64,000 nucleotides of DNA, taken from the IMG/VR virus record IMGVR_UViG_3300033153_008183, positions 1-64,000 of that record; one strand, 5' to 3'. Below the pieces are notes generated by a model, which saw only the letters and a list, made by a program, of their open reading frames with translations, had not been told where the DNA came from and ran no database searches. Every line of letters begins with the position of its first letter. Positions within the stretch are counted from its first letter, which is position 1. A program made the translations under genes and the position numbers. Source of the stretch: a virus. Below are positions 36,452 through 43,547 of this stretch, one piece after another.

Positions 36452-38541
36452 GTACCTACCCTCTGATCAGGTTCAACGTCACTTGGTACCCCTGCCTTAA
36501 ATAGATCAAAAGTTTGTAACGGTGTAGTATGATCTGAACTATCTACCTTAATCAATTGATTAGAAATAACCTGTTCATCAGCCTTTAGTATTTTATTATT
36601 ATTTTCTACAATTAACTCCATAGCTGCCTGGTCTGCTAAAGTTGCAAGTAAAGCTAAAGCAGCATCCATTTCAGCTTTTGTAGTGATATTAGCTGTAATT
36701 CTTGCTAATAACGTAGTGATATCTACCTGAGTGGCATCAATCTTCCCATCAGTTGTACCATGAAGTGTTGCTGCTGTCCCTGCTATGTCCGGAATCACGA
36801 TATTCGCATCATCTGTTCCCCTCATAACCGTTGGAATTGCATCTACTTTGGTTTCTACACCATCCAATGTTGTTTCTTTTGCTACAGTAGAATCCAAAGC
36901 CATTCCTGAAACGTCAGCCTTAGATGCATTCCTTGAAGCAGTATCCGTAATTACCTCATCTGTCGTATGATCAAATAGGGACGCTTCCAGAGCCAAGGCA
37001 GATACATTTGCCTGACTTGCTGTACGGGAAGCACTATCCGTTGTAACCGTTCCTGTAATAGTTCTGGCTACATTACTCCAAATATCCGCAATAAGAGTAC
37101 CGAAGCTGGAAAGTGTTCTGGTTGTTGCTGCCCACACATCGGCTGCAGAATGACTCGAACGGGTTGAAACCGCTACATCTAAATTACTTACATCTGCAAT
37201 AGGAGCTTGTTCTAAACCATTCTGAGTAAATCTTCTAACTCCGGCATCATCCTCTGTAGTCTCCCAAAGATGATCTAATTTACCACCATTAGTTTCCATT
37301 TCAGTTCTTATTTCCTCTACAGTTGGAGAACTCCCTCCTGCTCCAGTCAGCCAAGCATCATCACCACGATCCCTAATAGCTTCATTACTGTCTGTAGATT
37401 CTAAAAATCCAGAACCTTTTAATTCATCAATTGAAGCCTCTAAAGCAAGTGCTGAAACATTAGCTTGACTTGCAGTTCTTGAAGCCGTATCGGTTTCAAC
37501 AGCCGCAGTCAATATTCTGGTTGCATATTCCCATACCTGCTGTGCAGTTAATCCGGATCCGGCTACTCCTACATCATTAACGGTTTTGGTTGTAACTGGT
37601 TCTACATCGTAAAAGAATGAAAAGCTCTCTGCTACATCACCGGCATTGGTCTCTGTGATCAAAGTTCCCAGTAGTTTACCTACATCTACAGAATCACTAT
37701 CTGGATCAAAATACCCTGCCGCTAATAATGTTCTTGCAATTACGGTAGCTTCCAAAGCTAAACCACTGACATCAGCTTTGGACGCATTCCTTGAAGCTGT
37801 ATCTGTGATAACTTCATCTGTCGTGTGGTCAAAGAGACTGGCTTCGAGTGCAAGTGCTGAAACATCTGCTTTACTGGCTGTTCTTGAGGCGGTGTCCGTT
37901 TCTACTGTACCTGTAAGGACTCTTGTAGCATATGACCAGATATCAGCTAATAGTGTTCCAAATGACGATAATGTTCTTGTTGTCGCTGTCCATACATCAG
38001 CGGCAGAATGAGTACTGAAACCCGTGGCCTGTGACGCTGTTCTTGATGCAGAATCGGTTGTAACTTCATCACTTGTATGATCGAATAAACTTGCTTCAAG
38101 AGCTAATGCTGATACATTTGCTTGTGAAGCTGTTCTGGATGCACTATCGGTTTCTACTGCTGCTGTAACACTTGCAACAGCTCCAGATACGCTTGCCACA
38201 ATCTGATCTGCTGTATCTAAATCAAAAGCGTGTTGTGCCGAAGCATCTCCATATGTTTCAAACTCTATTGTTATGTCCAACCATGCCTTTGTTGCTGTCT
38301 GGTCTATAATTATAATAACGCCTCTGGCACATTCCATCTCTGTTGCTGTTAAAGCAATTGAATATGAATTCCCTTCATCAACAAAACCACTACCGGTATT
38401 TGCAGGAGTGCCTTCATCTTTCATAACAGTAGAATCACCGGATTCATGTGAGGCATCTACTCTAAGATCTACTCCATCCACTTCGTAAAGAGAGAAAACA
38501 AAAGTAGTTGCTTCTCCATATTTTCTTAGTCTATCAAACAT
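36448..38541 (-). CDS. Repeat-rich fibrous virion protein
   Basis: 7x TD(S/T)ASR(T/N)AS(Q/K)A and 5x (V/I)W...(T/A)R.(L/I) repeats. Confidence 0.7.
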   Translation of the reverse strand: MFDRLRKYGEATTFVFSLYEVDGVDLRVDASHESGDSTVMKDEGTPANTGSGFVDEGNSYSIALTATEMECARGVIIIIDQTATKAWLDITIEFETYGDASAQHAFDLDTADQIVASVSGAVASVTAAVETDSASRTASQANVSALALEASLFDHTSDEVTTDSASRTASQATGFSTHSAADVWTATTRTLSSFGTLLADIWSYATRVLTGTVETDTASRTASKADVSALALEASLFDHTTDEVITDTASRNASKADVSGLALEATVIARTLLAAGYFDPDSDSVDVGKLLGTLITETNAGDVAESFSFFYDVEPVTTKTVNDVGVAGSGLTAQQVWEYATRILTAAVETDTASRTASQANVSALALEASIDELKGSGFLESTDSNEAIRDRGDDAWLTGAGGSSPTVEEIRTEMETNGGKLDHLWETTEDDAGVRRFTQNGLEQAPIADVSNLDVAVSTRSSHSAADVWAATTRTLSSFGTLIADIWSNVARTITGTVTTDSASRTASQANVSALALEASLFDHTTDEVITDTASRNASKADVSGMALDSTVAKETTLDGVETKVDAIPTVMRGTDDANIVIPDIAGTAATLHGTTDGKIDATQVDITTLLARITANITTKAEMDAALALLATLADQAAMELIVENNNKILKADEQVISNQLIKVDSSDHTTPLQTFDLFKAGVPSDVEPDQRVGT

Positions 38542-41500
38542 GAGTTCCCTCCAAACAATGTTCTACTTCTGCCAACGCTTTTATATGTTCAGGATCACTA
38601 TACCATAATAGCTGTTTTTGTGCCTGCTTTAATTTCATCACTGTATACGATAATAAGAAACCGGAAATTGTATTGAATAATATCAATAGATTTTCAAAAT
38701 TAAATACTGCCGAATATCCCATGATCCTACGTCTAAGGACTGCTATTGAAGCAGGGGGTTCTCCACCACCACTCCATGCCCATGTACCCCAAAATGTTGC
38801 GTTGTCGTTTGTTTGGGAGTATTCTTCTGAAATCCAATCGTCTGACTTAACATCAGAACACCATTTAAAATCATCTAATATACCATCAAAAGTTTGCACA
38901 GCACCATTGGCCGATCCTGCAACTTGAAATTCTGCATTACCTACTGTAGGAGTAGTTCTTGTTCCTCCTGAATCTTTATTACTGTTTATCCATAAATCAA
39001 AATCTGTTCCATTTTTGCGTAAACATATAAAAGTATTTGTCATAGCTGATACATAATTAGAATAAAAAGACATTGTTCCGTTATTATCTTGGACTCCCAT
39101 ACGTCCATTTCCTTGTAGAACAAAATTGACATAATTAGAGCCGTTATACTTGGCTATAAGTGTTTGATTACCTAATAGATCATCTGTATTTATCCAACCC
39201 ATAAAAGTAAAATCATCATCAATATCTGGATCAGTCACAACCGAATCTGTTATCAAGTAATCATCTATATCATCGAAGTGTAATCCATTGGCCACTTGAG
39301 ATGATACTAAATCTCCAAAAGTCATTGTTCCGGCTGAATCTAAATCTACACTATTTAATGTCCTATCTAACATTTGTGGGGCTGATCCACTAGGATCTTC
39401 CTCAAGAGGCCAATATCCTTCCCAACTAGAATCATAAGCATTATCCGATCCATAAACATGAGTACTTGCATAAGCCTCATTATCAGTAACCGGAGGAAAT
39501 ACCCAAACTATTTGTGTACCTGTATCCTGTAAATCAGGCCATAGAAGTCTAAGCCAACCTGTTTCTGCTCCATCATCAAAGTCAATCCAATCTGCCGCAA
39601 GTTCTATTCCATCAGAAGTTGATACCCTGCCCATTGTACCGTCAAAAGTATTAACTGCATCCCACCACGCTTGAGGTAGATTACCTAAATTGATCATACC
39701 TGAGAAGTCAACTAAAACACTTGCAGGATTAGTCCATGTTGCATATGCTTTTTCACCGTAAGTATCTATGAGGTTTTCATCTACACCAACAGAATACGCT
39801 CCTACATTATATGGTTGACCGTCCATATCTGTAGTGTAAAGTCCTGAAGATGGGTTATCTGCTCCACCTTCAAAGCAGTTGCCTGTATTTAAAAGTGTGA
39901 AGTCTCCGTTTGAAGGATCTGTGTATTCGTTATCCCAATCTGAGCCGGATGGGGTAACTGCATTAGTTCCTGTCCCAGCAGCTGAGGCACAACAATCTAC
40001 ATCGTAGCCAGAACCTTCTACTACACTATATCCATAATCTATAAAAGCTGTGTTTACAACAGGTAATGATGAAGCGGTTCCATGTATGCCATACCTAAAT
40101 TTATGTGCTATAGAGTTGTATACTGTAAAATAGTTACCAGACATAGCTGCTGAGCCTATAACTGATGTTGAACCACCGGTTATTACTGTATTTATTACAG
40201 TAACCGTATTATCTGATAGAATCCCTATTTCTCTATAACTTTCATTACCTGCTTGCTCAAGATAACAACTATCAAACTCCATTCCTGGATGATCAGTTAT
40301 TGTTATAACTGATTGAGCAGCGCCATTTGTAGAAGATTTTTGAAATTGTATACCTTTAAACCTAATATAGTCATCAAATATTCTGATTAGATATGCTGTA
40401 TCCCCTGCTACCAGTCTATATCTGCTTGTATCTATGCCTGTTTTAAGAGCCTCATCCCCTGAAGCTGCTTCAATTAAAACATAGTGCGTAATATCAGTAG
40501 TCCATCCATCTATAGTAAATGTTGTCGTATCAGCTGTCCCACTAGATGCCCTGCAATAAACATGATGCCAGTCTCCATCGGTAACAAGATTAGTTTGCTC
40601 GGCTGCTTCCCAATCGTAAAGTGACAACCAAGCTGTTTCCCACGTTAAACCGTCTGGAGTTCCACCTGAATCAGGATCGACATAGCGAAGTAGTTCAAAT
40701 ATTGCTTCATCAACACCGATTGAATATGCACCACTGAAATAAGGATCTCCTTCCATATCAGTAGTGTAAAGCCCACCACTAGGATCATCTACACCACCAT
40801 GATATAGATTACCTTTTATTGCTCCTGAATTAACTAAAGTGAAATCACCATTATCAGGATCAACGAATTCATTGTCCCAGTTTGAATCTCTTGGAGCTAC
40901 TGGATTTGTTCCTATTGCATCATCACTGGCATTATAGTCTGCTGAGTTACCTGTCCCAATATCACTATAATCATCTCCTACATTATTAAATACAGCACAA
41001 TTAGTGACGGTTACATTATTAGAACCAGCTTCAAGTTCTATAGCTTCACTTGTTGCATAACCTTGACCTGTAAAAATACAGTTTGAAACATCTACAGAAG
41101 TAGATTCAGTAACAAGCAAACCATGCCTATGACACTTATTTAATATGGTATTAAATACTGAAACCGTTACATCGGAATCATATATATAAATTCCACGCAA
41201 GTAGCCAGCTCCATCTCCTTCAACTCTACACTCTTCAATTCTTATATCAGAACCTCCAGAAGGAATCCCCGATATATAAATAACATTTAAAAAATTAGTT
41301 GCAACATAATTTTCTTTTATCTGTAATTTTTTAATCCTTACATAGTTATCATTTATTATAATAGTAGTTTCATCCGTAGTTTCTAATCGGTACCTATCAG
41401 CTTGCCATCCAACCTTTAAAGCCTCATCTCCTACAGCTGCTTCTACAACAATGTTATTCGATGGTCCTGTCGTCCACCCATTTATAACAACCGCTGTCGT

Positions 41501-43476: not shown

Positions 43477-43478
43477 AT

Positions 43479-43547
43479 TCACTCCTTACCTATTGCTACA
43501 AAGGACAATACTATTAAAAACAATATTGCCCAAATTATAAAAATCAT
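43479..43547 (-). CDS. 22-aa single-TM micropeptide (not in ORF track)
   Basis: ATGA overlap with the upstream ORF; MIFIIWAILFLIVLSFVAIGKE. Confidence 0.5.
   Translation of the reverse strand: MIFIIWAILFLIVLSFVAIGKE

Follow-up and report, generated by a model that had tools for sequence, protein, structure and literature searches.

The host-recognition proteins of tailed phages are taken to fold and assemble in the cytoplasm, and the P22 tailspike, the tailspike proteins (TSPs) of phage CBA120 and the depolymerases of Klebsiella phages share a modular architecture in which right-handed beta-helices of polysaccharide-lyase or hydrolase type are swapped between phages. The present work concerns a protein with modules of this kind, encoded by a giant open reading frame (ORF) on the minus strand of the virus record IMGVR_UViG_3300033153_008183; the window, i.e. 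the whole stretch of DNA analysed, covers the first 64 kb (64,000 nucleotides) of this complete 80,917-bp IMG/VR genome with direct terminal repeats. The product, a chain of 1,610 amino acids (aa) termed P0001, differs from those tailspikes in carrying a predicted signal peptide, a C-terminal helix and a conserved tail, in having no recognisable N-terminal virion-binding domain, and in being encoded outside the tail module. With a probability of about one half, P0001 is a Sec-exported, type-I anchored lectin/beta-helix ectoprotein acting on envelope glycans; taken on its own, export with anchoring is likely, and judging from sequence comparison it is the best reading of the two ends.

Phage genes with Sec-type signals are known, among them lambda Lom and Bor, T5 Llp and TP-J34 Ltp, which act on the envelope and are often accessory genes of late regions. 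These products are small lipoproteins or outer-membrane proteins, whereas P0001 is a very long chain with a predicted type-I anchor and without a lipobox. The pIII protein of filamentous phages has a signal and a C-terminal anchor and waits in the membrane before joining the particle, and is the only classical model for reading P0001 as the exported precursor of a virion appendage; however, it belongs to an extruded filamentous phage, not to a tailed phage assembled in the cytoplasm, and has no sequence or fold relation to P0001. In the GlyGly-CTERM/rhombosortase signal, a Gly-Gly pair, a hydrophobic stretch and an Arg cluster stand at the C-terminus. P0001 shows a similar pattern on a beta-helix protein of exported type, and 'Rhombotarget A' is a weak fold match of its second beta-helix, but the hydrophobic part of the corresponding tag measures 5-9 residues, a further helix and a 33-residue tail follow it, and there is no NCBIfam match. 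Among cellular proteins, the closest homologues of the first module (P0002, P0003, P0006) belong to the cell surface and carry an anchor or signal at the N-terminus, and giant surface proteins with repeated LamG-type modules (P0002, P0003, P0008, P0016, P0028) start in the same way, the first module following directly at 37-40% identity; they differ in bearing FN3-like, esterase and peptidoglycan-binding domains and in being without the beta-helix pair, the tag and the tail. Furthermore, in a catalogue of prophage carbohydrate-active enzymes (CAZymes), signal peptides are reported for 3,261 of 64,678 entries (5%) (PMC13507307). Those enzymes and P0001 have in common that they are phage-borne, carbohydrate-directed and predicted to be exported; the catalogue concerns auxiliary enzymes assigned to CAZy families, whereas P0001 consists of fibre-type modules with no assigned CAZy family and has an anchor and a conserved tail. 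A search of full-text articles turned up no description of phage fibre modules in a signal-plus-anchor form. Signal peptides on phage genes are thus known, and what would be new is the combination of fibre-type modules with a portable signal and a portable tag-helix-tail end.

The giant gene comprises the following features.

38534..43366, minus strand: giant ORF encoding P0001, 1,610 aa plus stop; 8-nt overlap between its stop and the beginning of the following gene
43313..43366, minus strand: predicted Sec signal peptide, residues 1-18, MKKLFVGLLLLLSISLFA, cut after LFA; hydropathy 2.7, the maximum of the protein, and homologue alignment
42323..43285, minus strand: module A, residues 28-348, N-terminal beta-sandwich plus LamG/ConA-like lectin; Laminin_G_3 E 3e-21, 37-41% identity to P0002, P0003 and P0133
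41702..42322, minus strand: module B, residues 349-555, jelly-roll type; weak Pfam matches to Laminin_G_2 and Polysacc_lyase, and homologue P0124
40712..41701, minus strand: module C, residues 556-885, right-handed beta-helix; Pfam Beta_helix and DUF5123, with D799, D815 and D816 kept
39752..40711, minus strand: module C', residues 886-1205, second beta-helix; structure model (pLDDT 91.5) and Foldseek, with S1114, A1129 and A1130
38759..39751, minus strand: module A', residues 1206-1536, second lectin module; self-similarity, structure model and Foldseek
38711..38752, minus strand: C-terminal tag, residues 1539-1552, ASIAVLRRRIMGYS; end point of many signal-less homologues
38636..38710, minus strand: predicted membrane helix, residues 1553-1577, AVFNFENLLILFNTISGFLLSYTVM; borderline hydropathy, part of one long modelled helix
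38537..38635, minus strand: conserved tail, residues 1578-1610, KLKQAQKQLLWYSDPEHIKALAEVEHCLEGTHV, predicted cytoplasmic; alignment A2 and identity to P0156, P0012 and P0020

In translation P0001 begins MKKLFVGLLLLLSISLFATLP and ends ...AVLRRRIMGYSAVFNFENLLILFNTISGFLLSYTVMKLKQAQKQ...THV, so that the giant frame and the termini quoted in a first-pass annotation made from the letters alone are exact. Directly upstream of the ATG the in-frame codon is TAA, which leaves M1 as the sole start before the region of homology; this homology to other proteins starts by about residue 20, and the hydrophobic N-terminus must therefore be translated. When the whole protein was scanned by the Kyte-Doolittle method, residues 4-22 ranked first and residues 1559-1577 second at every one of four window sizes, with 15-residue hydropathies of 2.71 and 1.74, respectively; both hydrophobic ends described at first pass are thereby recovered, the C-terminal one as a borderline case. 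Signals cleaved by signal peptidase I follow the von Heijne rule, by which a basic n-region leads into an h-region of 7-15 uncharged residues and positions -3 and -1 are small or neutral; P0001 shows an n-region MKK, an uncharged 15-residue h-region (LFVGLLLLLSISLFA), L at -3 and A at -1. It is the sole product above 250 aa in the genome with a signal-like start. Two other readings of the N-terminus were rejected: a lipoprotein signal (signal peptidase II), as residues 1-56 contain no Cys, and a SAR domain, for which a Gly/Ala-rich core is the criterion, as the core is Leu-rich.

At the other end, the segment equivalent to the helix is clearly hydrophobic in the homologues P0133 (2.54) and P0020 (2.2), and in P0012, P0020 and P0133 the side after the helix is the more basic one (about +5), as expected with the tail inside. 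The last 90 residues matched no family at E up to 10 in NCBIfam, a library which we take to contain the models of the LPXTG, PEP-CTERM, GlyGly-CTERM and PGF-CTERM sorting signals and of the type IX secretion system (T9SS) C-terminal domain, and the whole of P0001 matched none (0 families) either. A T9SS C-terminal domain was rejected on this lack of a match, and the strong Shine-Dalgarno (SD) sites of the region would moreover argue against a Bacteroidota host.

Relatives were sought by an exhaustive HMMER search with residues 411-1610, which returned 3,374 proteins with E-values of 1e-3 or lower, 298 of them at 1e-30 or lower; the statistics given here refer to the best 150 including the query, i.e. 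to 149 others. Neither tblastn nor megablast found a match among 50,697 phage records, IMG/VR scans with P0001 and with the tail alignment A2 gave no relatives, a word-index search with P0001 yielded just 5 partial matches, and PHROGs returned 0 families, and hence no phage structural family. Most of the best 149 matches are single modules: stand-alone C modules of about 320-350 aa that begin M-AEVIRYVDPD, stand-alone A modules of about 340-360 aa that begin M-ALPSTGYATATVTNP, and at least one stand-alone B module (P0124).

The first-pass annotation had raised the question whether homologues keep both hydrophobic ends, and most do not: they begin at the predicted cut site of P0001, past the hydrophobic stretch, and end with the RRR-x-MG-x-S tag, which is to the letter the pattern that it had named as speaking against export, and 123 of the 149 have neither end. 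Nevertheless, 21 of the 149 have a signal-like start, and five share the helix and tail of the giant protein. As most homologues lack the ends, these are better seen as added, portable modules than as artefacts. The helix passes the threshold in 9 of the 21 signal-bearing matches, and in P0012 and P0019 it falls just under it, as in the giant protein, yet the tail is present; five of the 128 signal-less matches were flagged for a helix, none of them truly so when inspected by eye (0), the segments being Ala/Val/Ser-rich strands or the short tag. Signal and helix therefore co-occur across the 149 matches (Fisher p 5e-6).

The boundaries of these ends are sharp. In all eight signal-bearing C modules of alignment A1 (8/8), an invariant A20-E21 ends the hydrophobic stretch, the Glu being the first residue of the domain, and signal-less C relatives begin one residue before that Glu, with Met-Ala; the predicted cut of P0001 aligns with residue 2 of signal-less homologues. 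The A modules behave alike, since the signal of the giant protein lines up with those of P0133, P0083 and P0090 and signal-less forms start there. Helix and tail are common to the giant protein, P0156, P0012, P0020, P0019 and P0133, the tail following the pattern ...K-x-LL-W/F-Y-x-x-P-E/D-N-I-K-x-L-x-x-V-E.... Over the last 72 residues, P0156, P0012 and P0020 are 74%, 68% and 58% identical to the giant protein, against 52, 53 and 44% over their cores, and over residues 1578-1610 the three are 61-67% identical against 44-53% for the cores. Because tail identity exceeds core identity in these three proteins, the constraint on the tail appears to be at least that on the fold. Three states are found: no signal and a tag end; a signal and a tag end (P0083, P0090 and the 243-aa gene of locus L010); and a signal, a tag and a helix, with or without the tail. 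P0133 bears both ends on an A module, and P0156, P0012, P0020 and P0019 bear them on C modules. A tree of 46 C-module cores, in which the two rows of the giant protein were left outside the count, was poorly resolved (5 of 43 inner branches starred) and did not support a single origin of the signal-plus-anchor forms, whose five rows are scattered and, compared with shuffles, not clustered (5 changes, of which 2 or more are forced). Since they are carried on A or on C modules and are scattered on the C-core tree, the ends would seem to move between modules. The export or membrane tethering proposed at first pass thus finds indirect support in the comparison of homologues, through the signal layout, the alignment of the cut, the co-occurrence of the ends and the shared tail.

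The modular order A-B-C-C'-A', also described at first pass, is confirmed by self-comparison, in which residues 28-348 match residues 1209-1536 at 34.5% identity (E 4e-43) and residues 540-742 match residues 862-1062 at 38% identity (E 5e-29). Pfam places Laminin_G_3 (PF13385) on two stretches of P0001 (76.5 bits, cut-off 27.6), Beta_helix (PF13229) at 29.6 bits (cut-off 25.9) and DUF5123 (PF17161) at 39.9 bits (cut-off 35.1), and P0124 (231 aa) is a stand-alone homologue of module B at 54% identity. DUF2341 was rejected for the N-terminal half of module A, PF10102 being unreported for P0001 at E up to 0.1 and carried only by the distant match P0005. At the internal junctions, ...GVDEA/IFELLRYVDPD... 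and ...GVDEN/LIDTYGEKAYATWTNP..., the end of one unit meets the start of the next; stand-alone versions of all five modules occur in metagenomes, and P0001 can be regarded as a head-to-tail fusion of five units because these are separate genes elsewhere. At the DNA level, the two lectin modules share two short stretches, one of 70 nt with 83% identity (positions 958-1027 and 4522-4591 of the gene) and one of 53 nt with 79% identity (positions 372-424 and 3912-3964).

The two beta-helices differ in a potentially functional respect. Three Asp columns (D799, D815 and D816) are conserved in more than 90% of 46 family members; module C keeps all three, and C' carries S1114, A1129 and A1130 where the family has Asp, which suggests from the alignment that C is the active and C' a degenerate copy. 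If the conserved Asp residues are catalytic or metal-binding, only C would be active. An AlphaFold2 (AF2) model of C', built from an alignment of the 46 sequences, is a right-handed beta-helix with a predicted local distance difference test score (pLDDT) of 91.5. Its best matches among solved structures in Foldseek are the PL9 pectate lyase Pel9A (E 4e-6), a PL6 alginate lyase (TM-score 0.53), pectin methylesterases and GH136 enzymes, and among viral models (BFVD) they are beta-helix proteins of uncultured tailed phages and a structural protein of a Cellulophaga phage. A second model, of A' plus the tail, from 38 sequences (pLDDT 86.6), shows two beta-sandwich domains of the concanavalin-A/LamG lectin type, with most 10-residue blocks above 90 (range 73-97). 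Its Foldseek matches are ConA-like lectin domains (E about 1e-9), including carbohydrate-binding domains of a GH43 arabinanase, of trans-sialidase and of clostridial neurotoxins, and are best read, as generic lectin-type jelly rolls, for their fold class only. In the same model, residues 1539-1590 (model 340-391) form one long helix that runs from the tag through the hydrophobic stretch into the first part of the tail, and a second helix comes after it (model 393-408); the predicted membrane-helix segment is modelled as helical at pLDDT 62-78.

The genome belongs to an uncultured tailed phage with a contractile tail (myophage), has a G+C content of about 35%, and no tRNA genes were found in it (0). 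No close cultured phage was found, capsid identity being 34% at best. Along the minus strand, a first block holds the small and large terminase, portal, HNH endonuclease and a MuF-like head-morphogenesis gene; holin-like and spanin-like genes follow (48816..50363), then about 13 kb of genes without a PHROG, Pfam or NCBIfam family, and then the prohead protease, a gene in scaffold position (no PHROG match) and the major capsid protein. A complete contractile-tail module, with sheath, tape measure, baseplate hub and wedge and short-fibre candidates, lies at about 17-30 kb. The 13-kb stretch, which contains the giant gene, and the gene downstream of it are delimited as follows.

35849..48830, minus strand: 13-kb accessory island with the giant gene; tblastx against L002 and junction alignment
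36448..38541, minus strand: 697-aa gene downstream of the giant gene and overlapping its end, with a fibre-like stretch

The border of the island was obtained from a relative (L002, IMGVR_UViG_3300009788_000219) with a protease 81% identical, whose head and tail genes are collinear with those of this genome. In L002 the holin-like and spanin-like genes correspond to window 49523..48831, position 4619 to window 48831 and position 4632 to window 35848, and by tblastx and junction alignment 35849..48830 is missing from it. The island thus lies between the lysis-like genes and the prohead protease, outside the tail module, and holds tightly packed genes for a 149-aa protein, paralogous 520-aa and 586-aa proteins, a 444-aa protein, three small ORFs, the giant protein and proteins of 697 and 113 aa. 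PHROGs, Pfam and NCBIfam gave nothing usable for the other island proteins. The 697-aa protein shares 58% identity over 60 aa with the product of a fibre-like gene, the one after the module gene in locus L003, and its nearest Atlas clusters are only viral and unnamed. In a scan of 35-51 kb, promoter and terminator sites were no commoner than in shuffles.

Several side observations concern the region. A promoter-like site, TTGACA-17-TATTGT (window 35799..35827, minus strand), stands at the downstream border of the island, ahead of a small gene and the protease, and the sequence around it is conserved in L002 at the junction (around position 4660). The 586-aa and 520-aa island proteins (45040..46800 and 46811..48373) end alike, in ...ISGTIGSNGLSLTVVL... 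and ...ISGTITSNGFNLTVKL..., and longer module relatives (P0047, P0049, P0087, P0137) end in similar repeated strands, ...ITF..K.P.ITxT...; such endings may be a further kind of C-terminal end. The spanin-like pair (window 48816..49251) overlaps almost fully in two frames, with a lipobox Cys in neither product, and the one of 142 aa opens with a signal-like stretch similar to that of the giant protein. Outside the window, an ORF of 154 aa (G000 C1:72678..73142, plus strand) begins MMKKKILIILFTCILIG..., a lipoprotein-like signal with a possible lipobox Cys. All 13 genes listed around the island have strong SD sites, which together with the spanin-like pair suggests an SD-using diderm host.

What the analysis shows are features of the sequence, homologies and folds of the modules, the accessory island and two ends that co-occur and are conserved; the export, topology, substrate and biological role of P0001 are inferred. 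Residues 1-18 would direct export and be removed by a cut after LFA, leaving about 1,520 residues outside the cytoplasmic membrane, namely the lectins A and A', the jelly roll B and the polysaccharide-lyase-like beta-helices C and C'; having retained the acidic residues of the family, C could act as an enzyme, and C', which lost them, may only bind. One C-terminal helix, approximately residues 1553-1577, would hold the chain in the membrane, with the conserved 33-residue tail remaining in the cytoplasm. In this way a five-module fusion would have acquired two portable ends, an export signal at the front and an anchor with its tail at the back. The ectodomain would bind, and probably cut, a glycan of the infected cell's own envelope or capsule, a role proposed because lectin and lyase-like parts are joined in one chain and because the island is dispensable and lies beside lysis-like genes. 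The outcome may be an easier release, with progeny kept from sticking to debris, or alternatively the destruction or masking of the receptor against superinfection. Late co-transcription with the lysis-like genes is suggested by their shared orientation and by the absence of an intervening terminator above chance.

The C-terminal tag deserves separate attention, as short tags after Gly-Gly often end single A and C modules, whose folds are unrelated (P0013-P0155). Three kinds occur: an Arg type (...GGSIVPIILQQMRRRR, ...ISIPVVMHHRRMMGVS, with the variants ...SIVPIILQQMRRRR and ...IPVVMHHRRMMGVS), a Gly/Pro type (...APTGALYGPLGGPLAGPI, pattern ...APTGxLxGPLGGPLAGPI) and an aromatic type (...GGNPWYYYAQQI). 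The ...ASIAVLRRRIMGYS of the giant protein is of the Arg type, and many signal-less homologues stop exactly there; P0019 has a Gly/Pro tag ahead of the same kind of helix and tail. By a strict regular expression, 81 short signal-less matches divide into 25 of the Arg type, 7 of the Gly/Pro type and 49 others, the Arg count being too low, since by eye more of the 49 end likewise. A docking peptide and a short membrane-binding helix are both possibilities for the tag.

Genomic contexts vary among the homologues. In L003, a tape measure, a 370-aa distal-tail-like gene and a 97-aa gene are followed by a signal-less C module (9998-10987, tag GGGLSIPVAMHHYRQLRN) and by a fibre-like gene whose product starts MRELKQS. 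Locus L014 has these four neighbours too, here around P0133 (1623-2879), which consists of a signal, an A module, the tag GGGLSIPVAMNHYRHL, a helix and a tail. One slot of the tail module thus holds different modules, signal-less in one case and signal-plus-anchor in the other, with near-identical tags. In L006, a 47-kb viral contig, two adjacent genes (9935-12456) each encode a product with a signal-like start and a C-terminal helix, one a beta-helix module and the other a protein of 464 aa without a family; they lie upstream of two large ORFs (511 and 593 aa) taken, without annotation, for packaging genes. In L011 and L012, the signal-bearing module follows a capsid-like gene. Moreover, a scan of genome contigs found three contigs of metagenome-assembled genomes (Planctomycetota, Myxococcota), two of them with real relatives (L015 and L016, binned with Planctomycetota); being signal-less forms in phage-like settings of high G+C, these say nothing on the host of this phage.

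Several observations weigh against an exported and anchored ectoprotein that acts on envelope glycans. The C-terminal stretch of P0001 is borderline in hydropathy, at 1.74 over 15-17 residues and 1.47 over 19, and model confidence is low at residues 1550-1560 (pLDDT 45-53). Charge beside the helix is +3 on each side (RRR before, KLKQAQK after), and because three Arg precede the helix the positive-inside rule gives no orientation for P0001. Signal-bearing homologues show no Cys enrichment (medians 0.82% and 1.46%, p 0.14). The other large island proteins have no signal, signal-less homologues occur in tail modules (L003, L016), and the position of P0133 in a tail-module slot would fit a virion part better than a cell-surface enzyme. 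In addition, D799, D815 and D816 are Asp residues conserved across the family and no more than candidates for a catalytic role, and depending on the host, 'outside the membrane' may refer to the periplasm or to the cell surface.

Some of these points would be explained if P0001 were the exported precursor of a virion appendage, its two ends serving as pro-sequences and its body folding outside, tethered, to be cut after RRRIMGYS and joined to particles at or after lysis by way of the tag. An end-trimmed P0001 would match the signal-less homologues, at its start (TLPTIPGSKATATNP... compared with M-ALPSTGYATATVTNP...) and at its end (...RRRIMGYS compared with ...RRMMGVS-stop); the near-identical tags on different modules in the shared slot of L003 and L014 are what a lineage-specific docking peptide would look like; a fibre-like gene follows the giant gene, as in L003; and BFVD contains phage structural proteins and tail fibres of similar fold. 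However, the proposed cut has no known protease site or protease, a cytoplasmic tail conserved like the core or more would be discarded, the lack of Cys enrichment offers no reason why an oxidising compartment should be needed, and the island is dispensable in L002. To our knowledge, no tailed phage adds parts outside the cytoplasm, and this alternative is considered unlikely.

A broader version, in which the lectin and beta-helix modules form a widespread toolkit with cytoplasmic and exported states, the portable signal and the tag-helix-tail end acting as the switch and the exported host-recognition gear, made outside the cytoplasm on a membrane tether, docking onto particles at lysis through the tag, is regarded as decidedly unlikely; if true, it would mean a tailed phage finishing its virion outside the cytoplasm.

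More conservatively, P0001 may be an ordinary cytoplasmic fibre or tailspike whose hydrophobic ends are helices for assembly or for membrane contact during infection. This would agree with the large majority of homologues that have neither end, with the borderline hydropathy of the C-terminal stretch and with the neighbouring island proteins, which are signal-less. Against it stand the textbook n/h/c layout of the N-terminus, which also has the highest hydropathy of the protein, the co-occurrence of the two ends across homologues and the fact that the signal ends exactly at the start point of the signal-less homologues. Moreover, the Sec/SRP (signal recognition particle) targeting machinery engages Leu-rich hydrophobic cores, and the 15-residue core of P0001 would presumably engage that of the host in any case. 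This alternative is considered very improbable.

The 330 bases from the 444-aa gene to the giant gene are filled by three chained ORFs.

43544..43699, minus strand: 51-aa ORF without a hydrophobic helix; coupled through ATGA to the 444-aa gene and to the 22-aa ORF, no family match
43479..43547, minus strand: 22-aa ORF with a single helix, MIFIIWAILFLIVLSFVAIGKE; its ATG overlaps the stop of the 51-aa ORF as ATGA, SD-like GAGGGA upstream
43372..43476, minus strand: 34-aa ORF with a single helix, MKHDILFLILIIAYIVVGIAVTYVVVNTLKLGVM; AAGGAG 5 nt upstream, stop 5 nt before the giant ATG

The 22-aa and 34-aa ORFs with a single transmembrane helix and ribosome-binding-site or overlap support, which the first-pass annotation had noticed upstream of the giant gene, are indeed present and are the only such pair among the 411 ATG-initiated ORFs of 20-60 aa in the whole 80.9-kb genome. 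Eleven of the 411 pass a 15-residue hydropathy of at least 2.8, and two of the eleven also have an SD-like motif, these being the two adjacent ORFs; this exceeds what is expected by chance, and both are probably real genes. No comparable small ORF was found beside the module gene in five homologue loci (L003, and L006, L010, L011 and L014 with signal-bearing relatives), where hydrophobic small ORFs occur only out of frame, inside genes; owing to this absence, a functional tie to the giant gene, suggested by position, is tentative. The predicted complex of residues 1530-1610 with the 34-aa peptide scored 0.02, which carries no weight in either direction. NCBIfam gave no match for the three small ORFs. 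A type I toxin of the Fst family (NF033608) was rejected for the 34-aa ORF, which reached 12.3 bits (E 0.12, not significant) against a cut-off of 26 bits. Holins usually measure at least 60 aa and have charged ends, and a holin or antiholin identity was rejected for these peptides of only 22 and 34 aa without an NCBIfam match. Finally, it is hardly to be expected that P0001 is a lysis-linked membrane sensor or regulator, whose ectodomain would bind an envelope glycan or an incoming phage and whose tail, with or without the micropeptides, would signal to the holin-like and spanin-like genes to time lysis, for although the island directly follows those genes, the tail is conserved and the two single-helix micropeptides lie directly upstream, the same tail occurs in other contexts (P0133 in a tail module), the micropeptides are missing from the five homologue loci and nothing ties the tail to any lysis protein.

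Neither the family, with its 3,374 relatives (E up to 1e-3), nor the three kinds of C-terminal tag found in it are described in the literature searched, and the occurrence of forms with and without a signal in the same genomic slot provides a simple comparative handle. If P0001 works on the surface of the infected cell, it would be a receptor-destroying or release enzyme of a sort that is familiar from animal viruses and hardly documented for phages. If it is instead part of the virion, it would overturn the current view of where phage assembly happens.

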